Shown: positions 1,882 through 12,788, numbered from the stretch's first letter. The stretch is 37,812 nt of DNA from a virus (IMGVR_UViG_2778261419_000004:1-37812); one strand, 5' to 3'. Notes: generated from the letters alone by a model not told the origin. Made by a program: numbers and translations.

Positions 1882-2761
1882 CCTCCAGTTTCGCTTTGCA
1901 TTCTATGTAAATGGCTTGTACGTTCTGCTGCAATTTCATTCCAGATGTCAGGCGATATGCTTCTGCAAAATATCGCTTCAAATCATCCATGTTTTCTGCC
2001 TGAGCCATTTCATCACAAAGAAGTTGTGCTTTATCCATTATTTCCTGCTGGCGTTTCCGTTCATCTTCGCGGATATCTTCCTCTGATTTGTGCGGCATAA
2101 CAGGTTCCTGATGCATACCTTCATCTTCGTTAAGCAGGTGAATGGCATTATCCAGTCGCTGGGCTTTAGGCCAGTATTTGCTGGCGCGTTTAACTATTGT
2201 TTTACGCGCCATCTCTTCCCAGAATGTTTTCCACGGTCCATTCTTTGCCTTGCTCGTTGCTTCCACAGCTTTAATTTCTGCCAGACTCATTTCTTCAGTC
2301 AGGTAGTCACCATCTGCTGTTTTAACCGTGCAATAACCACCAACAATAGAGCCTCGCTCACCAAATGCGTTGTATTTGTGGGTTGGTGCTGAATCAAGGC
2401 CATTTGATTCATAGGTGTCGTTTGAGTACACCAGTTTGCATTGCCCCCACTTAATTGATCCTGTCGACTGTGCAAGGTGAAGTAATCCCATATAGCTGAT
2501 ATCAAGGCACACCATGCCGTCGCGCGGAACCAGATAAGCCAGTTTGCTGGCCGGGTTCAAGGTGATTCCGATCGCCGCAACATTGATGATGGCGTTCTGT
2601 GCGCTGGTTGGATTTGCCAGTGCCGTTTTAGCCAGGTAATCGTTTTTCTGGAAATACTGAATTGCAAACTGGCTTTCCTTAGCCCATGTCACCGTCTGTT
2701 CAGTCAATGCTCCGCAGAATAACTGCTCCTGCTGTTTAACGAATTCAACGATATTGCTCAT
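1859..2761 (-). CDS. recT: RecT-family single-strand annealing recombinase
   Basis: 300-aa ORF; C-terminal segment KNGPWKTFWEEMARKTIVKRASKYWPK matches the conserved RecT region (Rac RecT NGPWVTHWEEMAKKTAIRRLFKYLP). Confidence 0.85.
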   Translation of the reverse strand: MSNIVEFVKQQEQLFCGALTEQTVTWAKESQFAIQYFQKNDYLAKTALANPTSAQNAIINVAAIGITLNPASKLAYLVPRDGMVCLDISYMGLLHLAQSTGSIKWGQCKLVYSNDTYESNGLDSAPTHKYNAFGERGSIVGGYCTVKTADGDYLTEEMSLAEIKAVEATSKAKNGPWKTFWEEMARKTIVKRASKYWPKAQRLDNAIHLLNEDEGMHQEPVMPHKSEEDIREDERKRQQEIMDKAQLLCDEMAQAENMDDLKRYFAEAYRLTSGMKLQQNVQAIYIECKAKLEVASEQTV

Positions 2762-3069
2762 GCTGCTTCTCCATAAATGTGTCTGCGTTTGAATATTGCG
2801 AAGGCATATTCAGCCTTAACTCTTTCGGTTATTGCATCCCAGAACCATTCAGCGGCTTTTTCCTGATAGTCACAGTCATCATCTTCCAGCCAGTCGATAG
2901 CGTCCTTAGTGTGTTCATCTGGCTTATATGAGCGAAGCATTTCGCTTATTGGGTCGCAACGTTTGCAGAGGCGATCAACTTCACTGTTGATTCGTTCGTA
3001 ATCTTCATCAGTAAAACTTGCGATTATTTGCGATATTTCACGCTTATCATTCAGAGTCAGAATCATCAT
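2758..3069 (-). CDS. Hypothetical early-left protein
   Basis: 103-aa ORF whose stop overlaps the recT start (coupled); acidic; no recognised domain. Confidence 0.55.
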   Translation of the reverse strand: MMILTLNDKREISQIIASFTDEDYERINSEVDRLCKRCDPISEMLRSYKPDEHTKDAIDWLEDDDCDYQEKAAEWFWDAITERVKAEYAFAIFKRRHIYGEAA

Positions 3070-3150
3070 CTTTCTCCTGTTCTTTGTGCTGATTGAGCAT
3101 TTTGTTCATCTGACGAATGAATTCTTCGTCTGACCAGTTATCTGTAAAAC

Positions 3151-3321
3151 TCATGGACGGCCTTGTTGTTTCAAAATATCCCAAAGCTTTTCGAGCAAAC
3201 TTTTCATTCTTGGTTGTTTAAAGTCTGCTCCGGTTAAAATATTTTTTCGTGAATGCTGTACCGATAAAATCGGGTTGAAAGGGCGAACCGATGCCGCCCC
3301 TGCAATAGCGAACTGTTGCAT
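3151..3321 (-). CDS. Small hypothetical protein (56 aa)
   Basis: Hand-translated MQQFAIAGAASVRPFNPILSVQHSRKNILTGADFKQPRMKSLLEKLWDILKQQGRP; fills an otherwise non-coding gap in the leftward operon. Not in the track. Confidence 0.3.
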   Translation of the reverse strand: MQQFAIAGAASVRPFNPILSVQHSRKNILTGADFKQPRMKSLLEKLWDILKQQGRP

Positions 3322-3404
3322 AGGATGCTCCTTCTGTTTGATTGCATAACGAAAACGCCTCGAGTGAAGCGTTATTGGTATGCGGTAAAGCCGCGCTTGG
3401 CGGC

Positions 3405-3824
3405 TTATTTGAAGATTTCTATGAAATCAAGAACTGATGATATTTCGTGGTTGAACGATTTTCTTTTGTATCTTTCTATCGCAGAATCCACCTGGTGTTT
3501 ATAGTCATCGTCGTTTGAGTATTTAACGAAGCATTCTATTGTCTCAGGCGTTACAGCTATGAGGCTCCACCAACCTTCATCAGATTGATATTCAAACCCC
3601 ATGCTTTCAAGCCATCCAGCATATTTCCCTCCAGCATCTTGCCAGTGTGTTTTTTCTGCAAGGAAGCTGTTAACCGTCATATGTGCATCAAGGCATTTAT
3701 CCAACTGTTTACCATTAAGTAGCCATGCGCTGACAGTTGCACATCCCAAATCAACTGATTGAGTAGAGATATTGAATTGGTCGTAATTATCTGTATTAAC
3801 CAGAATATCTGTAATTTCCATCAT
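3405..3824 (-). CDS. Hypothetical early-left protein (139 aa, Trp-rich)
   Basis: Track ORF extends to 3875, but GGAGG precedes the in-frame ATG pair at 3824/3821 and a terminator hairpin overlaps the 5' extension, so the shorter start is preferred. Confidence 0.55.
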   Translation of the reverse strand: MMEITDILVNTDNYDQFNISTQSVDLGCATVSAWLLNGKQLDKCLDAHMTVNSFLAEKTHWQDAGGKYAGWLESMGFEYQSDEGWWSLIAVTPETIECFVKYSNDDDYKHQVDSAIERYKRKSFNHEISSVLDFIEIFK

Positions 3825-3831
3825 TCCTCCA

Positions 3832-3860
3832 TCAAAAAAATTGCCCTCACACTGGAGGGC
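3832..3860 (-). terminator. Rho-independent terminator candidate inside the leftward operon (tL-like)
   Basis: Minus strand reads GCCCTC-CAGTGT-GAGGGC (6-bp stem) followed by AATTTTTTT, immediately upstream of the 3824 start. Confidence 0.55.
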
Positions 3861-3955
3861 AAAGAAGATTTCCAATAATCAGAACAAGTCGGCTCCTGTT
3901 TAGTTACGAGCGACATTGCTCCGTGTATTCACTCGTTGGAATGAATACACAGTGC

Positions 3956-4168
3956 TTATTCGCGAGCTTTGAGCATGGCATCAGCAATAAAGTAGGCATC
4001 ATCTGCTAATTCTTTGTACTGTGGTGAATTCTGTCCACCACCAAAGGAATGTCCGTCCCATCTGCGCACTATTGCTGCCATAGCCTTAGCAGCGAAGTAA
4101 TCACGTAATGTCGCATCACTTGCCATTTCTGGGCGTTTGATATCTGCTTCATAAAACTCGCACATCAT
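3956..4168 (-). CDS. Hypothetical protein (70 aa)
   Basis: Track ORF; stop overlaps the next gene start in the leftward operon. Confidence 0.5.
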   Translation of the reverse strand: MMCEFYEADIKRPEMASDATLRDYFAAKAMAAIVRRWDGHSFGGGQNSPQYKELADDAYFIADAMLKARE

Positions 4169-4461
4169 TCACCTCCAAGAGCCTTGATGATTGCTGCAAG
4201 ACCTTTATTAACAGCTCCATACCATTCTGGATATGTTGTCGTTGTTCTATTTTTGGATTGCTTAAGTAATAACTGAAGTGCTTCGAGAAGGTCAGGTGCT
4301 GCCGCTATTAAATTGGCATCTTCAATACATTGAACTTCCTCACAGATTGCAATATACGAACGCCAGCCTGCGCCATTTTCAAGTGAGTCCGCCTGGATGA
4401 TTTTAATCTCATCGCCATCCATCATTATTTCCCACTTACCTTCAGTACCTTTAAATTCCAT
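4165..4461 (-). CDS. Hypothetical protein (98 aa)
   Basis: Track ORF in the leftward operon with compact spacing; no recognised domain. Confidence 0.5.
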   Translation of the reverse strand: MEFKGTEGKWEIMMDGDEIKIIQADSLENGAGWRSYIAICEEVQCIEDANLIAAAPDLLEALQLLLKQSKNRTTTTYPEWYGAVNKGLAAIIKALGGE

Positions 4462-4500
4462 GTTAGCCTCTGTTATTTATGACAAAAATAAAGGCTACCA

Positions 4501-4701
4501 TCAGGAAGCCTTGTTGTTCTGTTTACCAATTTCTCTGGCAATCATTGCCGTAGTTCGTATTGCCCATTTATCGACATATTTCCCATCCTCCATTACAGGA
4601 AACATTTCTTCAGGCTTAACCATGCATTCCGATTGCAGCTTGCATCCATTGCATCGTTTGAATTGTCCACACCATTGATTTTTATCAATAGTCGTAGTCA
4701 T
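4501..4701 (-). CDS. Small Cys-rich protein (possible zinc ribbon)
   Basis: 66-aa ORF containing C-x5-C-x2-C-x5-C (CGQFKRCNGCKLQSEC). Confidence 0.45.
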   Translation of the reverse strand: MTTTIDKNQWCGQFKRCNGCKLQSECMVKPEEMFPVMEDGKYVDKWAIRTTAMIAREIGKQNNKAS

Positions 4702-4825
4702 ACGGATAGTCCTGGTATTGTTCCATCACATCCTGAGGATGCTCTTCGAACTCTTCAAATTCTTCTTCCATATATCACCTCAAATAAGTTGTTTGCTGCG
4801 AAAGTAAATACGCTTAAGTTACCTG

Positions 4826-4963
4826 TTATTTATCCCACCAAGTTCCGTATCTATCTATCCAGTTACACCAATCATCGACACTCCATTTTGTTGTGTCGCA
4901 TTTTGGCAACTGGCATGAATATCTACCTTCTTTGTAAAGTCGGCGTTTGACTTTCTTGAGCAT
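4826..4963 (-). CDS. Small Cys/Trp-rich hypothetical protein (45 aa)
   Basis: Hand-translated MLKKVKRRLYKEGRYSCQLPKCDTTKWSVDDWCNWIDRYGTWWDK; GAGGTGAG motif upstream; begins 9 nt after the N stop. Not in the track. Confidence 0.3.
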   Translation of the reverse strand: MLKKVKRRLYKEGRYSCQLPKCDTTKWSVDDWCNWIDRYGTWWDK

Positions 4964-4971
4964 GGCTCACC

Positions 4972-5277
4972 TCAATCGTAATAAGCTGGAATTGATTTTC
5001 CGCGTTGCTTCTGGCGGCCTGAACAAGTCACACCCATTTCACTGCGTGGCTTGCGGTAGTAAATACGGTTCTGTTTACGCTCGATTTCTTCTGCCTTCTT
5101 GCAGCGAAGGCTTCCGAGTGATGCTGCTTTATCTGCTCTGACGCAACCAGAGAGCTTTAGCGCAATCTTTCGCGCCAGTCGCTGCTCTTGCATTGCCTGT
5201 TCACGTTGAGCCCGTCTGCGTGCTCTGCGGCGATTTCTGGCGTTATCGTCAGCCAGATATGTAATGACTACTGCCAT
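4972..5277 (-). CDS. N: N-like transcription antitermination protein
   Basis: 101 aa; N-terminal arginine-rich motif NARNRRRARRRAQREQ; C-terminus YYRKPRSEMGVTCSGRQKQRGKSIPAYY resembles lambda N (WYSKPGERGITCSGRQKIKGKSIPLI, recalled); first gene after pL and nutL. Confidence 0.85.
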   Translation of the reverse strand: MAVVITYLADDNARNRRRARRRAQREQAMQEQRLARKIALKLSGCVRADKAASLGSLRCKKAEEIERKQNRIYYRKPRSEMGVTCSGRQKQRGKSIPAYYD

Positions 5278-5384
5278 GTTGACCTCCGATGATTGACTTT
5301 GGCGGTGACGCGCCGGGTGCTTATCTTCCGGTTGCTGTCGTGCAGCTGCACTTCACGTCACCCCAAAGCCAACTACTCTTTGGT

Positions 5385-5425
5385 TCCCGCATTTCGGCGG
5401 GACAATCCCATCAATGTTAAAGAGC
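5385..5425 (-). promoter_or_regulatory. nutL (boxA plus boxB hairpin)
   Basis: Minus strand reads GCTCTTTAACA (boxA), 12-nt spacer, then TCCCGC-CGAAAT-GCGGGA hairpin; same boxB sequence as the nutR site at 7080-7099. Confidence 0.7.
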
Positions 5426-5644: not shown

Positions 5645-6013
5645 TTAGTCAGCGAAGGTTAAGACGAGAATTAACTTAATGATGTCTGCTACAACAGACA
5701 CGGCCATAGATAAACCAAAGACAATCCAAGCCATAGAGATGTCTTCACTACCATCGTATAGAGTTCCGTAATCACTGGTGTAAGGCGTAAATGTCGCGCC
5801 TTGATACAATAGGTATAAGCTTGATCCATAGAGGATAAATGCAGATATCCCTTGTATTGCTATGATCACCAGAATCATGAAACGAGCTGATCTATGCGCC
5901 CAAGCCTGGCTTATTTTTTCTGATAGAGATTTCGCAATAAAAGCATGCGCTAAGCCGTAAATTGTCGAGATTGCCAACATCCCAAAAAAGCTTGCTATAG
6001 CGGTTCCAACCAT
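5645..6013 (-). CDS. Small multi-pass membrane protein coupled to cI (candidate exclusion protein)
   Basis: Track ORF 5645..6034 begins with TTG one nt after the cI stop; a more likely ATG at 6013 follows AAGGGG. Three or four hydrophobic helices; same transcript as cI. Confidence 0.65.
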   Translation of the reverse strand: MVGTAIASFFGMLAISTIYGLAHAFIAKSLSEKISQAWAHRSARFMILVIIAIQGISAFILYGSSLYLLYQGATFTPYTSDYGTLYDGSEDISMAWIVFGLSMAVSVVADIIKLILVLTFAD

Positions 6014-6030
6014 AAGCGCCCCTTGCGTGA

Positions 6031-6747
6031 TCAAACCAGCCTTAGTTTTGTCTCAATTGCAACGCCTATAATCTTGCAGTTTCCATTGATTGGCACGAGA
6101 GGCCATGCAGGGTTAAGTCCCTTGAGGTATTTATTTCCGCCGTCGATTATCAGCTTCTTGAATGTTGCTTCGTTAGAGTCAGAAAGTTTTGCTATAACCA
6201 AGCTGCCGTTGATCGCCTCCCTTCCGGTATCGAAAAGAACGAATGTTCCCTCTGGAATGCTTAACCCAACCGGTGCCGTCATTGAATCACCTTCCACTTT
6301 AAGCCAAAACGCATTACCTTGAATATGCGCGTCAGACTCAAGCCAAACATCTACGTCTTTAATGGTGTATGGTTCGCATGCTTCACACCACGAGCCAGCC
6401 TGGATACTGCTTAACACCGGATACCTCTTTCCTGCTCTGTATTCCCCTGCATACCTTACGTTGGCATCGCTCTTAAGGCTTTCTGCCTGTTCTGCAACCT
6501 TGGCAGCAATTGACTGGCTAAAATCAGCAATTGAGACTTGCAACAATCGTGCAAAACCAGATGCAACCTCAACGTTTAGCGCGTTTCTGCCATTAAGATA
6601 ATGCCCTACCGCTCCTTGGGTGATACCCAGTTCATCAGCGATTGAGTATTGGGTTATTCCCAATTCTTTCTTTTTTGACTCATACAAAGCCTTAAGCCGC
6701 TTAGCGTCTTCGAGCTGTTCTGTCGTCAGTGATTTTTTATTTTCCAT
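6031..6747 (-). CDS. cI: CI repressor (HTH plus LexA-like S24 autopeptidase domain)
   Basis: 238 aa; LTTEQLEDAKRLKALYESKKKELGITQ resembles lambda cI; C-terminal FWLKVEGDSMTAP...ATFKKL carries the Ser/Lys autocleavage motifs; leaderless start next to OR3. Confidence 0.9.
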   Translation of the reverse strand: MENKKSLTTEQLEDAKRLKALYESKKKELGITQYSIADELGITQGAVGHYLNGRNALNVEVASGFARLLQVSIADFSQSIAAKVAEQAESLKSDANVRYAGEYRAGKRYPVLSSIQAGSWCEACEPYTIKDVDVWLESDAHIQGNAFWLKVEGDSMTAPVGLSIPEGTFVLFDTGREAINGSLVIAKLSDSNEATFKKLIIDGGNKYLKGLNPAWPLVPINGNCKIIGVAIETKLRLV

Positions 6748-6753
6748 AGCTTA

Positions 6754-6782
6754 ATTCTAATAGCTAAGGTACTTAAACTAAA
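6754..6782 (-). promoter_or_regulatory. pRM candidate (-10 TAGAAT on minus strand, weak -35)
   Basis: TAGAAT ends about 6 nt before the cI ATG, consistent with a leaderless transcript; overlaps OR3. Confidence 0.4.
6759..6773. promoter_or_regulatory. OR3 operator site
   Basis: AATAG-CTAAG-GTACT, two mismatches from the palindrome; 24 bp from OR2 centre. Confidence 0.5.
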
Positions 6783-6797
6783 AATACCCTGAGTATT
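6783..6797. promoter_or_regulatory. OR2 operator site
   Basis: Palindrome AATAC-CCTGA-GTATT. Confidence 0.65.
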
Positions 6798-6824
6798 GAT
6801 TGCTTTGAATACCTGTAGTATTCT
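6796..6824 (+). promoter_or_regulatory. pR candidate (-35 TTGATT, 17-nt spacer, -10 TATTCT)
   Basis: Hexamers overlap OR2 and OR1; same -10 hexamer as the pL candidate; GGAGAG lies 7 nt before the cro ATG. Confidence 0.55.
6807..6823. promoter_or_regulatory. OR1 operator site
   Basis: 17-bp palindrome GAATAC-CTGTA-GTATTC, 25 bp from OR2 centre; overlaps the pR -10. Confidence 0.7.
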
Positions 6825-6853
6825 TTGTTCATGGTTAATAACGGAGAGTGCAT

Positions 6854-7048
6854 ATGATTCGAATGACACTTGCCGATTACGCCAAAATCCATGGACAGGC
6901 TAAAGCAGCCAGTGACTTTGGTGTAATCCAGTGCGCTATCAGCAAGGCCATTCTGGCAGGCCGTAACATCATGGTTACGGTAAAGCCTGATGGCAGTGTG
7001 ATTGGAGAGGAAGTTCGTCCTTTCCCAAGCAACAAGAAAAACAAATAG
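6854..7048 (+). CDS. cro: Cro repressor
   Basis: [62 protein letters not shown] resembles lambda Cro (recalled); track start 6848 is GTG, ATG at 6854 preferred. Confidence 0.9.
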
Positions 7049-7054
7049 TAACAC

Positions 7055-7099
7055 CGCTCTTTAACAGTCATGGTCCTCATTCCCGCCGAAATGCGGGAA
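7055..7099 (+). promoter_or_regulatory. nutR (boxA CGCTCTTTAACA plus boxB hairpin)
   Basis: boxA 7055-7066; boxB 7080-7099 is TTCCCGC-CGAAAT-GCGGGAA (7-bp stem, hexaloop) 13 nt downstream. Confidence 0.7.
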
Positions 7100-7105
7100 T
7101 ACAAC

Positions 7106-7123
7106 GCGCATAAGTTGATGCGC
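7106..7123 (+). terminator. tR1-like hairpin candidate
   Basis: GCGCAT-AAGTTG-ATGCGC hairpin followed by T-rich ATAACTTCTTATTTGTT, between nutR and cII. Confidence 0.4.
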
Positions 7124-7156
7124 ATAACTTCTTATTTGTTAAGGAAATACTTACAT

Positions 7157-7435
7157 ATGCAACTTACAAGTACTCGCAAGAAAGCGAATGCAATTACAAG
7201 CAACATCCTGAATCGAATTGCTGTACGTGGTCAGCGAAAGGTTGCCGACGCGTTAGGGATTAATGAATCGCAAATTTCGCGATGGAAAGACAGCTTCATC
7301 CCAAAAATGGGAATGCTTCTGGCTGTTCTTGAATGGGGTGTTGAAGACGAGGAGTTGGCGGAACTGGCTAAGAAAGTAGCCAGAATGCTGACAAAAGAAA
7401 AAGCCCCGAAGAACGGCGAATTCTTCGAGGCCTGA
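7157..7435 (+). CDS. cII: CII-like transcriptional activator
   Basis: [42 protein letters not shown] resembles lambda CII; AAGGAAA before the ATG at 7157. The track extension from 7070 runs over nutR and is not used. Confidence 0.85.
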
Positions 7436-7469
7436 TGCAGAAAGACTGGATCAATCCACAGGAGTAATT

Positions 7470-7616
7470 ATGACAAAACAACTCAGTCCTTACCAGGACA
7501 AAATTCACAAACACATACTACGTGATCGCTTCCTGTCCAGCTTCAAGCAGCCTGGTCGATTCCGGGCTGAGTTGGAAAAAGTGAAGCTGATGCAGAAGGA
7601 GAAAGGTCATGAGTAA
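7470..7616 (+). CDS. Small hypothetical protein (48 aa)
   Basis: Hand-translated [48 protein letters not shown]; AGGAG upstream; stop overlaps the O start. Confidence 0.3.
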
Positions 7617-8469
7617 TCTTGCAACCGTAACACATTTAAGGCCTTCACAACGGCCTGTGGAGCGTCGTGTGGCAGAAGTTGAAGATGGTTATACCCGTCT
7701 TGCAAATGCCCTGTATGAAGAGCTTATCGGCGCAGATTTAACGAAAAATCAGAGCAAGGTTGCCCACGCCATATGCCGTAAAACATACGGCTACGGTAAA
7801 AAGATGGATCGCATCTCTGATAGTCAGTTAGCTCAAATTACTAGGCTGCCAAGACAGAAGGTAAACAAGGCCAAGAATGAGCTTATCGCGATGAAGGTTA
7901 TCCTTCGCGAAGGCCAGCAAATCGGGCCTAACAAGAACATCGAGGAATGGCAAATAGAAGGGTGTCACTACTCTGGTGATAATGTCACTGCATTGGTGAC
8001 AAAAAGTGTCACCAAAACGGTGACAGCGCTGTCACCAAAACAGGGACACACAAAAGAAACTATTACAAAAGAAAAAAGAAATAATAAAAACACTATGTCC
8101 GAAAGTGTTCGGACGGAGTGTGAAAAATCACATGACCGTCACGAAGAAACCGACAAGGCATTCGAGGAAATATTCTGGTGTGCAGGCATGCGGAAAGCCG
8201 GGAAGAAAAACGCAGCTTCGGCATTCAGAACACAGTTCAGGGAATGGCGTAAAACTACCAGGGGTACGGCAAGCGAGTTTGCCACGATGCTGGCAGAAGA
8301 CATCGCATGCAGGAATGGTAAGCAGTTCGGATTCGACAGGTTGTTACCATCGAGCTACCTGAACGGTCAACGCTGGAACGACGAGAAGCCAGAAACTATT
8401 CAACCACAATCCAAACCATCATCCGCAATCACCGTATCGAAAACTGGCTACGTGTTTTTCGACAGGTGA
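7609..8469 (+). CDS. O: Replication initiator (lambda O-like N-terminal domain)
   Basis: [56 protein letters not shown] resembles the lambda O N-terminus (recalled); contains internal iterons. Confidence 0.8.
7961..8095. repeat. Origin-like iterons plus AT-rich tract inside the O gene
   Basis: Inverted repeats TGGTGACA-AAAAG-TGTCACCA and GGTGACAG-CG-CTGTCACC with further GTCAC/GTGAC copies, followed by an A-rich run (8045-8095); architecture resembles ori-lambda. Confidence 0.6.
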
Positions 8470-8472
8470 ACC

Positions 8473-8580
8473 ATGAAATCAAAAATCAAATCGCTACTGG
8501 TTGCTGGTTATAACCACGGCTGGTTAAGTATTTCGTTTGTCGATTTCTGGTTTAAAAATCTCAATCTGAGGGAATCATGA
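8473..8580 (+). CDS. Possible small ORF (35 aa) coupled to the primase-helicase gene
   Basis: Hand-translated MKSKIKSLLVAGYNHGWLSISFVDFWFKNLNLRES; its stop overlaps the ATG at 8577 (ATGA). Could be spurious. Confidence 0.2.
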   Translation: MKSKIKSLLVAGYNHGWLSISFVDFWFKNLNLRES

Positions 8581-10457
8581 CGCCAAGTGAACTTAGCGAC
8601 CTGCTTTGGGCGCAGGTTGACAGGGTGGCTCCGCACCTGTTGCCAAACGGCAAGAAAGAGGGGCATGAGTGGGTTGCCGGTAACGTCAATGGTGACAAGG
8701 GAAACAGCCTTAAGGTCAACCTTAGCGGCAAGAAAAAATGGGCTGATTTCGCTGAGGGAGACGGCGGTGACATGCTTGATTTGTGGATGGCATGTCGTGG
8801 AATTAACCTGCATCAGGCTATGCAGGAAGCGAAAGCATTTCTCGGTATCAAGGATGACGATCACCATTTCGATGCCAAACGTGAGAAAAAATTCTCCAGA
8901 CCTGATCGCAAGAAAATCGCCCGCTACGTTACCAGAACAGAATCCCATCTTGAGTACCTGCAATCGCGTGGCATATCGCCAGAAGTCGTAAAGCGCTACG
9001 AGGTTGTCAGCGGCAAGGTGTGGAATGGAGAACGAGAACTTGATGCACTGGTGCTTCCGTACAAACGCGATGGTGAGTTGTTGCAGGTCAAGCGAATCAG
9101 CACTGAGCGCCCGGACGGGAAGAAAGTCATTATGGCAGAAGGTGATTGCGAACCTTGTCTGTTCGGATGGCAGGCTCTGGACGCTGGCGTGAGGGCGGTT
9201 GTACTTTGCGAAGGCGAAATTGATTGTATGAGCTATGCGCAATACGGCATCTCGGCGTTATCCGTGCCGTTTGGTGGAGGGAAAGGCGCTAAGCAACAGT
9301 GGATTGAGTTTGAGTACCACAACCTCGACAGGTTTGAGGAAATATTCATCTCGATGGACGTTGATGATGTTGGTCGTGAAGCCGCAAGGGAAATCGCAAG
9401 CCGACTCGGTGAACATCGTTGCCGTCTTGTTACTCTGCCGTACAAAGACATCAACGAATGCCTGATGAACGGTGTTACCGAGGATGAAATCTGGCAGTAC
9501 ATCGGCACGGCATCCTACTTTGATCCTGAAGAACTCTACAGCGCGCGAGAGTTTTACCAGGACACTATCAACGCTTTCTACGGCAAGCAGCAGTATCTGT
9601 TTAATCCACCGTGGGAATCTCTGGCAGATAAATTCCAGTTTCGTGAGGCCGAGTTGACGCTGGTCAATGGTGTGAACGGTCACGGAAAAACGGAGGTTGT
9701 CGGGCATATGGCACTTGAGGCAATGCGTCAGGGTGTGAAGACGTGCATCGCGTCACTTGAGCTGAAGCCTGGTATTCTCCTTAAGCGCCTTACCCGTCAG
9801 GCGACGTGCTGCAAGATGCCGCCAGTGCTGGAAATTGACTCTGCATTTAAATTTTATGACGAAAGACTTTGGGTGTTTGGCCTGACTGGAACGGCGAAAG
9901 CCGACAGGCTGATCGAAATATTCGACTACGCTCGCCGCCGATACGGCATCCAGTTATTCATCATCGACAGCCTGATGAAATGCGGCATAGGTGACGATGA
10001 CTATAACGGGCAGAAAGCATTTGTTGACTCGATTTGTGACTTCAAAAACAAAACAAACTCCCACGTCATTCTCGTTACTCACTCCAGAAAAGGAGACAGC
10101 GAAGAAAAACCAACCGGGAAAATGGACGTAAAAGGCTCTGGAGCGATAACAGACCTGACAGACAACCTTTTCATCATCTGGCGTAACAAGGCTCGCGAGA
10201 GAGCGTTACAGAGAGTTCAGAGTGGTGAAAAAATGTCAGAGAAGGACGAACAGCTACTGGCATCTCCGGCATCTGTTTTGATGCTTGAAAAACAACGTAA
10301 CGGCGAAGGTTGGGAAGGTGGTGTCCCGTTGTTCCTTGACGAGCAATCGCACCAGTTCCTGCAACTTGAATCAGGATCGCCTTATAGCTACATCGCCAAT
10401 ATGCCGAAATCGGAATATGACGAGGCGTGGCGACAGGAAAACGTGACGGAGTATTAA
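8577..10457 (+). CDS. Bifunctional DNA primase-helicase (TOPRIM plus DnaB-like ATPase)
   Basis: 626 aa; TOPRIM-like VLCEGEIDCMSYAQYG and SMDVDDVGREAAREIA; Walker A GVNGHGKTEV and Walker B LFIIDSL in the C-terminal half. Confidence 0.85.
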   Translation: MTPSELSDLLWAQVDRVAPHLLPNGKKEGHEWVAGNVNGDKGNSLKVNLSGKKKWADFAEGDGGDMLDLWMACRGINLHQAMQEAKAFLGIKDDDHHFDAKREKKFSRPDRKKIARYVTRTESHLEYLQSRGISPEVVKRYEVVSGKVWNGERELDALVLPYKRDGELLQVKRISTERPDGKKVIMAEGDCEPCLFGWQALDAGVRAVVLCEGEIDCMSYAQYGISALSVPFGGGKGAKQQWIEFEYHNLDRFEEIFISMDVDDVGREAAREIASRLGEHRCRLVTLPYKDINECLMNGVTEDEIWQYIGTASYFDPEELYSAREFYQDTINAFYGKQQYLFNPPWESLADKFQFREAELTLVNGVNGHGKTEVVGHMALEAMRQGVKTCIASLELKPGILLKRLTRQATCCKMPPVLEIDSAFKFYDERLWVFGLTGTAKADRLIEIFDYARRRYGIQLFIIDSLMKCGIGDDDYNGQKAFVDSICDFKNKTNSHVILVTHSRKGDSEEKPTGKMDVKGSGAITDLTDNLFIIWRNKARERALQRVQSGEKMSEKDEQLLASPASVLMLEKQRNGEGWEGGVPLFLDEQSHQFLQLESGSPYSYIANMPKSEYDEAWRQENVTEY

Positions 10458-10486
10458 ATGACCATCTACATCACTGAGCTTGTAAC

Positions 10487-10515
10487 AGGCCTGCTGGTAA
10501 TCGCAGGCCTTTTTA
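10487..10515 (+). terminator. Rho-independent terminator (tR2-like, before the nin region)
   Basis: AGGCCTGC-TGGTAATC-GCAGGCCT (8-bp stem) followed by TTTTATTT. Confidence 0.7.
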
Positions 10516-10534
10516 TTTGGGGGAGAGGGAAGTC

Positions 10535-11122
10535 ATGAAAAAACTAACCTTTGAAATTCGATCTCCAGCACATCAGCAAAACGCTATTCACGCAGTACAG
10601 CAAATCCTTCCAGACCCAACCAAACCAATCAATCAAATAACTCAGCAGAGACTTAAAGAAGTCCTTCTCTACGATGAGTTAACAGGGAAATTCACATGGA
10701 AAGTAAAGAAATGCCAGAGAATGAATGCTGGGGATATCGCAGGGCATAAGAGTAGCGAAGGCTACTGGGTAATAAAAGTCGATGGAAAACTTTATAAGGC
10801 ACACAGGCTGGCGTGGCTCTATATGAATGGCAGTCTACCAAAAAGTGATATCGACCACATAAATCTCGTTAGGGATGACAATCGTATAGCAAATCTTAGA
10901 TTGGCAACTCGATCTCAAAACATCCAAAACGTAAACAAAAAGGCAAATAACAAATCAGGATATAAAGGCGTTTCATGGGATAAGAAATCAAGAAAATGGA
11001 GGGCGCAAATCGTAATCAACAAGAGGAAAGTTAATCTTGGGTTTTACGATGACCCAAAGGAAGCTCATAAAGTATATGCAAATAAAGCGGATGAATGTTT
11101 CGGCGAATTTGCGAGGTATTAA
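10535..11122 (+). CDS. HNH homing endonuclease with AP2 domain, N-terminally fused to a NinB-like segment
   Basis: First 32 aa MKKLTFEIRSPAHQQNAIHAVQQILPDPTKPI match the lambda NinB N-terminus as recalled; then HNH motif DHINLVRDDNRIANLRLATRSQN and AP2-like YKGVSWDKKSRKWRAQI...GFYDDPKEAHKVY. Track start 10517 is TTG. Confidence 0.8.
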   Translation: MKKLTFEIRSPAHQQNAIHAVQQILPDPTKPINQITQQRLKEVLLYDELTGKFTWKVKKCQRMNAGDIAGHKSSEGYWVIKVDGKLYKAHRLAWLYMNGSLPKSDIDHINLVRDDNRIANLRLATRSQNIQNVNKKANNKSGYKGVSWDKKSRKWRAQIVINKRKVNLGFYDDPKEAHKVYANKADECFGEFARY

Positions 11123-11123
11123 A

Positions 11124-11552
11124 ATGAAATGTGTCAAATATCACCTTACTAATGAATCTATAAGATATAACGCCATTCAGTATCTTAGGACATGCGATTT
11201 AGACATCATTGTCGAGTTTAAGCAGCGCAACCGCAGCTTAGACCAGAATCGAAAGCTTTGGGCTTGCCTTGGTGACGTCTCTCGTCAGGTTGAATGGCAT
11301 GGTCGCTGGCTGGATGCAGAAAGCTGGAAGTGTGTGTTTACCGCAGCATTAAAGCAGCAGGATGTTGTTCCTAACCTTGCCGGGAATGGCTTTGTGGTAA
11401 TAGGCCAGTCAACCAGCAGGATGCGTGTAAGCGAATTTGCGGAGCTATTAGAGCTTATACAGGCATTCGGTACAGAGCGTGGCGTTAAGTGGTCAGACGA
11501 AGCGCGACTGGCTCTGGAGTGGAAAGCGCGATGGGGAGACCGGGCAGCATGA
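11124..11552 (+). CDS. ninB: NinB (Orf-family recombination mediator)
   Basis: 142 aa from the ATG at 11124 (AGGTAT motif upstream); [37 protein letters not shown]...[11 protein letters not shown] matches lambda NinB as recalled. Confidence 0.85.
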
Positions 11553-11722
11553 TGCGATGTTATCGGTGCGGTGAATGCAAAGAAGATAACCGCTTCCGAC
11601 CAAATCAACCTTACTGGAATCGATGGTGTCTCCGGTGTGAAAGAACACCAACAGGGGTGTTACCACTACCGCAGGAAAAGGAGGACGTGTGGCGAGACAG
11701 CGACGAAGTATCACCGACATAA
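11549..11722 (+). CDS. ninD: NinD-like small zinc-finger protein
   Basis: 57 aa [32 protein letters not shown]... with CxxC...CxxC; start overlaps the ninB stop. Confidence 0.55.
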
Positions 11723-11865
11723 TCTGTGAAAACTGCAAATACCTTCCAACGAAACGCTCCAGAAATAAACGCAAGCCAATCCCAAAAGAATCTGACGTAA
11801 AAACCTTCAATTACACGGCTCACCTGTGGGATATCCGGTGGCTAAGACATCGTGCGAGGAAATGA
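11689..11865 (+). CDS. ninE: NinE-like protein
   Basis: Hand-translated from a GTG start after AAGGAGGA: [57 protein letters not shown]. Not in the track. Confidence 0.5.
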
Positions 11866-12227
11866 CAATGGATTATTCACAGTTAAGTGATTTTGAAATT
11901 AACGTGGCGGTATTCGAAGCCATTCATAACGGATCACCGGATTACAAAGAAGGTGAGAATGGCGATATGGTGTTTGTCTCATTTGAGGGAGACATTGTAA
12001 ACGGAGACGCAGTTGAAGTAGAAGTTGAGCGCGGATCCTTTAACCCATGCGCAAACCCAGCAGACGCATGGCCGATTATTGAAAAATACAGGATTAGCAT
12101 TATCAATCTCGATGAAGACGAGTGGGGTGCACGCGGTGTGGCCTACTGTAAATCTAAGCGAGCTATACATGAAAATCCCCTCCGCGCCGCCATGATTGTC
12201 TTTCTCATGATGCAGAGAATCCAATAA
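11862..12227 (+). CDS. Hypothetical nin-region protein
   Basis: Track ORF from a GTG at 11826; the ATG at 11862 overlaps the ninE stop (ATGA). Acidic; function unknown. Confidence 0.5.
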
Positions 12228-12406
12228 TGCTTAGCCCATCCCAATCCCTTCAATACCAGAAAGAAAGCGTCGAGCGGGCTTTAACGTGCGCTAACTGCGG
12301 TCAGAAGCTGCATGTGCTGGAAGTTCATGTGTGTGAGCACTGCTGTGCAGAACTGATGAGCGATCCGAATAGCTCAATGTACGAGGAAGAAGACGATGGT
12401 GATTAG
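12227..12406 (+). CDS. ninF: NinF-like small Cys-rich protein
   Basis: Hand-translated 59 aa [59 protein letters not shown]; TAATG overlap with the previous gene. Not in the track. Confidence 0.55.
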   Translation: MLSPSQSLQYQKESVERALTCANCGQKLHVLEVHVCEHCCAELMSDPNSSMYEEEDDGD

Positions 12407-12788
12407 CCGATACGGAAAAATAACGTTTAAACATTTTCAAGACAATCCAACATGGGCTGCTGCGGCTGGATATGACTTTAATTATTTTGATTGTCTGTCA
12501 GTCGCATGTATTGCAACTACCAATGTTGCTAACAACATAATCGATGAATTCTTGGATTTTCCAGACTATCAGGTCAGAGAGTTGCCTGCATTTTTTGTGA
12601 AAGTATCTGTTGCTACAGCTCTGTTATTTATTTTGTTATTCGCATATCCATTGCTTGCCGTATTTGTTTATGTGAGATGCAAGCACTCACAAAATGAATA
12701 CAGCGGAGAGCATACCGATATTACCAGCCAAAATATGCGAGTGTGGTTGAGGAGATGCCAAGAGAAATGGGGGAGAAGTCATGGCTAA
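12396..12788 (+). CDS. Hypothetical protein with one predicted transmembrane helix (AT-rich insert)
   Basis: 130-aa track ORF; hydrophobic VSVATALLFILLFAYPLLAVFVYV; noticeably AT-rich relative to neighbours; start overlaps the ninF end. Confidence 0.45.
   Translation: MVISRYGKITFKHFQDNPTWAAAAGYDFNYFDCLSVACIATTNVANNIIDEFLDFPDYQVRELPAFFVKVSVATALLFILLFAYPLLAVFVYVRCKHSQNEYSGEHTDITSQNMRVWLRRCQEKWGRSHG

Follow-up and report, generated by a model that had tools for sequence, protein, structure and literature searches.

In phage ES18, the deposited annotation (Casjens et al. 2005) describes gp59 as 'similar to phage lambda gpO', an associated rep_origin as 'similar to lambda ori', gp60 as 'function unknown' and gp61 as a 'putative primase/helicase; similar to phage T7 gene 4'. 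The same module has been reported in epsilon34, where the lambda-like N-terminal domain of the initiator was noted (PMC2629481), and in Sf101, the replication module of which is >90% identical to that of mEp043 (PMC4159516). It is one of the three replication-module types distinguished in P22-like phages in the Casjens group's paper on the Anderson typing phages (PMC10307801), and the same helicase defines the 'Eru5' type of Shiga toxin (Stx) phages (Fagerlund et al. 2022, PMC8951638). Here we describe a 37,812-nucleotide stretch of viral DNA (IMGVR_UViG_2778261419_000004:1-37812, hereafter designated as the window), positions 7609-10457 of which are, as identified from the sequence, the replication module of a P22-like temperate phage: a gene for a lambda-O-type initiator, a gene for a 35-amino-acid (aa) protein and a primase-helicase gene that replaces lambda P. 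The original prediction, made from the window sequence alone, that an O-like initiator is paired here with a primase-helicase was correct; the module is already known and common, and the arrangement is not new. What remains of interest is the tail motif at the C-terminus of the initiator, the 35-aa protein and the zinc-less primase.

The helicase family comprises more than 2311 proteins, a 99%-identity cluster contains 5632 member sequences, and 298 of 5426 complete Escherichia coli genomes (~5%) carry the module. Besides ES18, the phages epsilon34, SEN22, mEp043 and Sf101 possess a module of this type. At the DNA level, positions 7400-10600 of the window are 99.7% identical to Shigella flexneri phage Sf101, 99.3% to coliphage mEp043 and 91.7% to Salmonella phage SEN22, and large parts of this region also match ES18, epsilon34 and many Stx phages. 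The initiator, the 35-aa protein and the 626-aa primase-helicase are each 100% identical to their counterparts in Sf101, which is a viable phage. ES18 exhibits the same gene order and the same gene overlaps, and its gp61, gp60 and the C-terminal half of its gp59 are 94.2, 94.3 and 96% identical to the window proteins, respectively. The module comprises the following features, given in window coordinates.

7609-8469, plus strand: O-family replication initiator, 286 aa (Pfam Phage_rep_O, TIGR01610).
7963-8048, no strand: four 19-bp palindromic iterons with the consensus TGTCACN6GGTGACA, the predicted O-binding array.
8049-8095 (47 bp), no strand: A-rich tract, 68% A and 81% A+T, the predicted DNA-unwinding element.
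8090-8121, no strand: palindrome flanking the A-rich tract, with 14-nt arms that are 86% complementary and a 4-nt loop.
8428-8466, plus strand: conserved initiator tail ITVSKxGYVF, preceded by a variable linker rich in Pro, Ser, Thr and Gln; candidate motif for docking to the primase-helicase.
8473-8580, plus strand: 35-aa conserved protein, homologue of ES18 gp60 (phrog_21848, E = 4.4e-26).
8577-10457, plus strand: 626-aa primase-helicase of the T7 gp4/Twinkle type (Pfam, PDB sequence matches, phrog_239, motifs, AlphaFold2 (AF2)/Foldseek).

The conserved N-terminal domain that the original prediction had ascribed to the O-like gene was confirmed by Phage_rep_O (PF04492), which matched initiator residues 20-114 (E = 1.1e-37, 128.8 bits against a cut-off of 28.7), and by TIGR01610 phage_O_Nterm (E = 1.6e-30, 105.4 bits against a cut-off of 45.5). 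The protein is composed of two halves, an N-terminal winged-helix origin-binding domain (residues ~1-157) and a C-terminal partner module (residues ~160-286). The N-terminal part is 52% identical to that of lambda O, whereas the C-terminal half shows only 19% identity, and on this comparison the latter is unrelated to the C-terminal (P-binding) domain of lambda O. No Pfam family matched the C-terminal half even at E<=1, and no NCBIfam family did so. A protein search with this half returned mostly partial, near-identical fragments, and the only fusions found were to PF04492 or PF13730 N-termini.

The internal palindromic iterons followed by an A-rich tract, which had been likened to ori-lambda, were also recovered, together with the predicted deviation of their sequence (TGTCACC/GGTGACA) from the lambda iterons. 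The four iterons start at 7963, 7983, 8007 and 8030 (TGTCACTACTCTGGTGATA, TGTCACTGCATTGGTGACA, TGTCACCAAAACGGTGACA and TGTCACCAAAACAGGGACA, respectively). When TGTCACN6GGTGACA was searched for with up to two mismatches, 11 strand-matches were obtained in the 37.8-kb window versus 0.54 expected, and none of 100 shuffles reached 11; eight of these matches are the four iteron palindromes, each read on both strands. The start-to-start spacing of 20/24/23 is that of the annotated lambda iterons (39034/39054/39078/39101), while direct comparison showed the iteron sequence to be unlike lambda's ATCCCTCAAAACGAGGGA. The A-rich tract is near-identical to that of lambda over ~33 nt (ACAAAAGAnACTATTACAAAAGAAAAAAGAAA) and then diverges, and the lambda DNA at the place equivalent to the 8090-8121 palindrome is, by eye, also an inverted repeat. 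The predicted origin agrees with ori-lambda in the number and spacing of its iterons, in the A-rich tract and in the palindrome beside it. The pairing of iterons and initiators was checked across 32 prophage loci retrieved with the helicase. Loci with an O N-terminal domain 73-91% identical to that of the window carried the same TGTCAC..GGTGACA iterons, and those at 35-47% identity carried other palindromes with similar spacing (TTAGCG..CGCTAA, TGTAGCT..AGCTACA and TTACCCGAATCAGGTAA), which shows that among prophages the iterons change together with the N-terminal domain of O.

The two halves of the initiator are separable in nature. In ES18 and epsilon34 the O N-terminal domain is of the lambda type and the iterons are those of lambda (ATCCCTCAAAA..GAGGGA), whereas the window, Sf101, mEp043 and SEN22 have another O N-terminal domain (49% identity to the ES18/epsilon34 type) and TGTCAC..GGTGACA iterons. 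Four combinations of halves and partner genes illustrate what travels with what.

Window and Sf101: N-terminal half of the window type; C-terminal half of the window type; partner, primase-helicase.
PhiR12_1: N-terminal half 100% identical to that of the window; C-terminal half 100% identical to that of lambda; partner, P (PF06992, E = 1.9e-61) with Ren.
ES18: N-terminal half of the lambda type (86%), with lambda iterons; C-terminal half of the window type (96%); partner, primase-helicase.
Stx2a_F403: unrelated N-terminal half (HTH_36); C-terminal half of the window type (95%); partner, primase-helicase.

Because these are natural recombinants, they show that the C-terminal half of the initiator tracks the partner gene, be it P or the primase-helicase, and that the N-terminal half tracks the iterons. 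The similarity to the PhiR12 phages stops at window position ~8081, and that to the Stx, epsilon34 and Klebsiella phages starts at ~8036-8085. The crossover by which the two halves of O are recombined thus lies in the conserved A-rich tract, with the break in DNA similarity at ~8081-8085.

Within the C-terminal half, the end of the protein is conserved in a distinctive manner. In the 16 initiators compared that share the C-domain type of the window, the folded part closes with ...YLNGxRWxDEKP, the following linker of ~12-16 residues varies, and the tail (I/V)TVSKxG(Y/L)VF is conserved. A recognisable tail also ends initiators with two other, unrelated C-domain types encoded upstream of the same helicase (loci L013, L022, L027 and L008), and the initiators of L021, L023 and L025 have merely a similar hydrophobic or aromatic ending. 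Tail-bearing initiators carry either Phage_rep_O or HTH_36 N-termini. The tail is absent from P22 gp18, an initiator paired with a DnaB-type helicase. However, lambda O ends with the loosely similar ...TNTDWIYGVDL, and the specificity of the tail for helicase-paired initiators is therefore not established. We regard the ~12-residue tail strictly as a candidate docking motif.

A domain search on the 626-aa protein, in which TOPRIM-like and Walker A/B motifs had been recognized by the original prediction, returned Toprim_2 (E = 3e-12, 47.1 bits against a cut-off of 22.1), AAA_25 (E = 2e-6) and, below the gathering threshold, DnaB_C (E = 3e-5, 23.8 versus 27 bits). The protein matched T7 gp4 (E = 2.7e-23, residues 192-539) and Twinkle (E = 6.5e-14) among PDB sequences, and falls into phrog_239 'DNA primase/helicase' (E = 1.9e-171). 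Its layout comprises a zinc-less domain resembling a zinc-binding domain (ZBD-like, residues ~1-90), a TOPRIM RNA-polymerase domain (~110-310), a linker and a superfamily 4 (SF4) helicase domain (~350-590). Motifs were located by aligning the protein with T7 gp4A and seven homologues at 66-79% identity, and invariance was counted over 23 homologues at 69-95% identity. In the helicase half, Walker A (GHGKT), Walker B (FIIDS), H3 (THSR) and H4 (DVKGSG) aligned to T7 gp4. A DnaB-type KQRNG motif, invariant in 23 of 23 homologues and not in register with T7 R522 in the motif alignment, is likely to be the arginine finger. In the TOPRIM domain, CEGEID, DVDD and KDINE aligned to T7 E157, D207/D209 and D237, respectively, and all three motifs were invariant in the 23 homologues, with E212, E214, D216, D261, D263 and D291 being the invariant acidic residues. 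The AF2 model was of moderate quality, with a predicted local distance difference test score (pLDDT) of 70 and a predicted template-modeling score of 0.45, and its top Foldseek matches in the PDB were human Twinkle (7t8c, E = 3.6e-23 over 622 columns), T7 gp4 (5ikn, E = 1.1e-21) and Aquifex DnaG (2au3, E = 1.3e-12). The N-terminal ZBD-like domain was predicted to be beta-rich at a pLDDT of 80-91, and TIGR01391 dnaG matched residues 26-143 at 9e-10, which relates this domain to the zinc-binding region of DnaG. On this evidence the designation as a helicase is well supported, and that as a primase is likely but uncertain, being the less secure of the two.

The predicted lack of a lambda-P-like loader was upheld as well. 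In tblastn searches of the whole window, no homologue of lambda P or P22 gp12 was found (best E 0.022 over 17 aa), and no P-, DnaC- or DnaB-like gene was found in the window; the genes downstream of O are the 35-aa open reading frame (ORF) and the gene for the TOPRIM/SF4 protein. The P partner of PhiR12_1, with its score given above, served as the positive control for the presence of a PF06992 (Phage_lambda_P) protein downstream of O. At the C-terminus of the helicase (10404-10454), a conserved acidic/aromatic tail was observed (...SEYDEAWRQENVTEY). T7 gp4 has an acidic, Phe-terminated C-tail that contacts T7 DNA polymerase; that the tail of the 626-aa protein could by analogy contact a component of the host replisome is pure speculation.

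The 35-aa ORF had been proposed as a possible gene coupled to the start of the primase-helicase, and the proposal holds. A Shine-Dalgarno sequence (AGGTGA) lies in the last O codons, and the stop codon overlaps the helicase start (ATGA). Its counterparts are ES18 gp60 and epsilon34 gene 51. In 21 divergent sequences the ORF was intact and always abutted or overlapped the helicase start, with the protein consensus MK..IK..L..GYNHG.LS..FV..WF....LR. The ratio of nonsynonymous to synonymous polymorphism (pN/pS) was 0.33 in frame versus 1.03 and 1.62 in the other frames, and stop codons numbered 0 in frame versus 79 and 51 in the other two. These patterns identify the ORF as a real gene that is under purifying selection and translationally coupled to the helicase. 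It is missing in 5 of 26 related enterobacterial loci (Xenorhabdus and Providencia; L017, L019, L021, L023 and L028), which marks its product as an accessory factor and not an obligatory loader. In four of these five loci the helicase gene closely follows the initiator gene, and in L019 the two are separated by a gap of 200 nt that contains no such ORF.

No homologue of known function was found for the 35-aa protein in Pfam, in NCBIfam or by an exhaustive phmmer search of a library of 1.84 billion representative proteins. The latter yielded five hits, and two of them, which are long repeat proteins, were rejected because of a chance 'GWxD(I/V)SKVDFW' motif. In P0172 (131 aa; like locus L026, from Arsenophonus), part of the initiator C-domain is joined to the 35-aa peptide. 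We did not take it as functional evidence: the junction replaces the ...TFTVSNGLVFF tail, and the fusion therefore looks like a frameshift in a decaying prophage. The gene is annotated in ES18 and epsilon34, and is unannotated in RefSeq Sf101 (NC_027398) and in PGAP-annotated E. coli genomes.

We consider it probable that the locus works as a lambdoid replication module of the type seen in ES18 and Sf101, in which an initiator is combined with the phage's own helicase. Its initial steps are modelled on the established behavior of lambda, in which O binds the iterons and the tract is opened (PMC7466680). Winged-helix dimers of the O N-terminal domain would bind the four TGTCAC...GGTGACA iterons in the O gene to form an O-some, and the O-some would destabilise the neighbouring lambda-like A-rich tract. 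The C-terminal module of O, comprising a small helical domain, the flexible linker and the ITVSKxGYVF tail, would recruit the phage's own hexameric helicase and not P-DnaB, and this T7-gp4-like helicase would load itself on the opened single-stranded DNA without a P- or DnaC-type loader. The TOPRIM domain would probably make the primers, so that host DnaG might be dispensable, and host DNA polymerase III would extend them; the host polymerase is presumed because P22-like and ES18-like phages have no gene for a DNA polymerase (PMC10307801). The 35-aa protein would be made in step with the helicase and act as a dispensable accessory. Given that the full set of SF4 motifs is present and that the window contains no loader or DnaB homologue, it is a reasonable inference that recruitment of host DnaB would not be needed. 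What the data themselves establish is the anatomy of the sequence, its homologies, the joint inheritance of its parts and the purifying selection; iteron binding, helicase recruitment, self-loading, priming and the independence from DnaB and DnaG of the host are inferred.

Several points weigh against this proposal. The searchable literature yielded no biochemical or genetic test of the module, and nothing is known, according to PMC8951638, about how Eru-type Stx phages replicate. The contact between O and the helicase is suggested by linkage only, and the coding sequence of the tail directly adjoins the helicase operon, so that the two may be inherited together in part simply because they are neighbours. 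For the initiator C-terminal half (8056-8469; 13 sequences), AF2 gave a poor model (pLDDT 54) with three helices, an unstructured linker and some indication of a hairpin at the end, which was too weak for a fold search. As for priming, the positions of the T7 zinc ligands C17, C20, C36 and C39 are occupied by Ala, Val, Asp/Ala and Glu, and neither the 626-aa protein nor any of the 23 homologues aligned has Cys or His at these four positions. Metazoan Twinkle, which is without primase activity, exhibits the same loss of zinc ligands, and this makes priming by the 626-aa protein uncertain.

The last point bears on an alternative that we regard as rather unlikely, namely that the 626-aa protein only unwinds DNA, that its primase half is dead as in metazoan Twinkle, and that host DnaG primes. 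The loss of all four ZBD zinc ligands in every homologue would fit this alternative, as would human Twinkle being the best fold match, a weak alignment to Aquifex DnaG that puts Asp and Glu at the positions of the two C-terminal Cys ligands, and the behavior of T7 gp4B, which without a ZBD cannot carry out template-directed priming. However, unlike in human Twinkle, the catalytic acidic residues of TOPRIM are present and invariant in the 23 homologues, and the ZBD-like domain is highly conserved, with ~20 invariant positions in residues 31-70. The DnaB N-terminal domain is the site of DnaG recruitment, and Pfam detected no such domain in the 626-aa protein, though it did so in P22 gp12.

Two further alternatives concern the helicase and its loading. 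It seems improbable that the 35-aa protein connects O with the helicase as the decisive adaptor or loader and so takes over the function of P. Its strong conservation, the purifying selection on it and its constant coupling to the helicase are what such an adaptor would lead one to expect, as is the fact that it stays beside the helicase when the type of the initiator C-domain changes (L022, L025 and L027); against this stand the 5 of 26 related loci without the ORF, the ability of T7 gp4-type helicases to load themselves and the failure to find a homologue of known function. Still harder to accept, and in our view very improbable, is that host DnaB remains the fork helicase while the 626-aa protein serves mainly as a primase, an origin remodeller or a loader-like ATPase. 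Although the DnaB_C score lies under its gathering threshold, the H1, H2, H3 and H4 motifs and the KQRNG motif are all present, homology to bona fide replicative helicases in both sequence and fold spans the whole C-terminal half, and there is no P-, DnaC- or DnaT-like loader to capture DnaB. P22 gp12, moreover, provides the precedent of a lambdoid phage with its own helicase.

An extension of the initiator-plus-own-helicase proposal, which is possible but which we hold only tentatively, is that the module contains a portable recruitment system: the linker-tethered tail would hand the opened origin to the self-loading gp4/Twinkle-type helicase, the 35-aa protein would tune this hand-off, and the zinc-less, TOPRIM-intact domain would still prime. 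If true, it would represent a natural case of DnaG-type template-directed priming without a zinc finger. The module offers a simple natural system for the study of the hand-off from an initiator to a self-loading helicase, of zinc-less DnaG-type priming and of the role of a 35-residue protein. It is also of some practical relevance: the same helicase, in an intein-bearing form, drives the 'Eru5' Stx phages, and their replication may affect toxin output.

The surroundings of the module are those of a typical lambdoid early-right operon. After the repressor, the order of genes is cro, cII (Pfam Phage_CII), the DUF2740/orf48 gene, O, the 35-aa ORF, the 626-aa gene, ninA and ninB. The flanking features are given below.

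6031-6747, minus strand: CI-like repressor.
7470-7616, plus strand: small gene of the DUF2740/P22 orf48 type (Pfam DUF2740, E = 8.9e-29), directly upstream of O and overlapping its start.
10487-10510, plus strand: intrinsic-terminator-like hairpin with a T-run, inside ninA and just 3' of the replication genes, at a tR2-like position.

The orf48-like gene holds the same position in P22, ES18 and Sf101. Its product is labelled a 'tail protein' in PHROGs (phrog_1913) and RefSeq; given its conserved position between cII and O, in the replication operon, this label is probably wrong. A strong terminator-like hairpin is present on the minus strand at 7433-7401, at the 3' end of cII, where lambda and P22 have the terminator of the oop RNA, and the P22 record has a terminator annotated at the ninA site equivalent to 10487-10510. 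A promoter scan found fewer sigma-70-like sites than in shuffled sequences, giving no support for an internal promoter. An Rfam scan of 6000-12500 (E<=1) revealed neither an intron nor a known RNA within the module; its only hit, to the Mu-gpT-DE sRNA at 7815-7869, inside the O coding region, reached 20.3 bits (E = 0.4) where the gathering score is 49 and is most likely due to chance.

Further downstream, the ninB region (10535-11552) contains a 595-bp replacement relative to Sf101, at 10631-11225. An in-frame fusion joins an endonuclease ORF with HNH and AP2 domains (Pfam HNH_3, 1e-16; AP2, 1e-6) to the 32 initial codons of Sf101-type ninB, and a complete ninB with a different N-terminal allele starts at ~11124, after the endonuclease ORF. 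The same Rfam scan detected no intron at this insertion. The replacement looks like the insertion of a free-standing homing endonuclease with a co-converted flank.

Compared with known systems, the module shares with lambda the O N-terminal family, an origin in the O gene, four 19-bp iterons at 20/24/23, the A-rich tract and the flanking palindrome. It differs in that lambda has P and Ren, whereas the window has the primase-helicase and the 35-aa gene in their place, other iterons and an unrelated C-terminal half of O; there is presumably no need for capture of DnaB by P or for chaperone-mediated release of P. P22 genes 18 and 12 follow the same logic, with an O-family initiator containing an internal origin, then a phage-encoded replicative helicase and no loader. 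However, P22 gp12 belongs to the DnaB family, with DnaB N- and C-terminal domains and no primase domain, whereas the window protein has TOPRIM instead of the DnaB N-terminal domain. P22 gp18, an initiator without the ITVSKxGYVF ending, is 36% identical overall to the window initiator, and P22 has no 35-aa gene between genes 18 and 12.

The 'Eru5' Stx phages (Stx2a_F403, phi24B and Min27; PMC8951638) are close to the window in the C-terminal half of the initiator (95%), the 35-aa ORF (71%) and the helicase exteins (99.5%). Their initiator has an HTH_36 N-terminus in contrast to the Phage_rep_O N-terminus of the window initiator, and their helicase gene carries a 342-aa Hint+LAGLIDADG intein right after the Walker A lysine (GHGK|T), while the window allele is without an intein. 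Alleles with the intein were observed in L005 (Stx2a_F403; 2496-5402), L029, L030 and P0012, and the aligned insert runs from Ala-Cys to His-Asn, with Thr as the next residue. In older annotations the intein-bearing helicase gene is split or named 'P'.

T7 gp4 and Twinkle have the same domain order as the 626-aa protein (ZBD-like, TOPRIM RNA-polymerase, linker and SF4 helicase) and conserved catalytic motifs, at only ~28% identity. Relative to T7 gp4, the 626-aa protein lacks the Cys4 site and has a ~20-residue insertion before the arginine-finger motif; relative to human Twinkle, it has retained an intact TOPRIM domain. Unlike either of them, the 626-aa protein would work from an iteron origin with a dedicated initiator.

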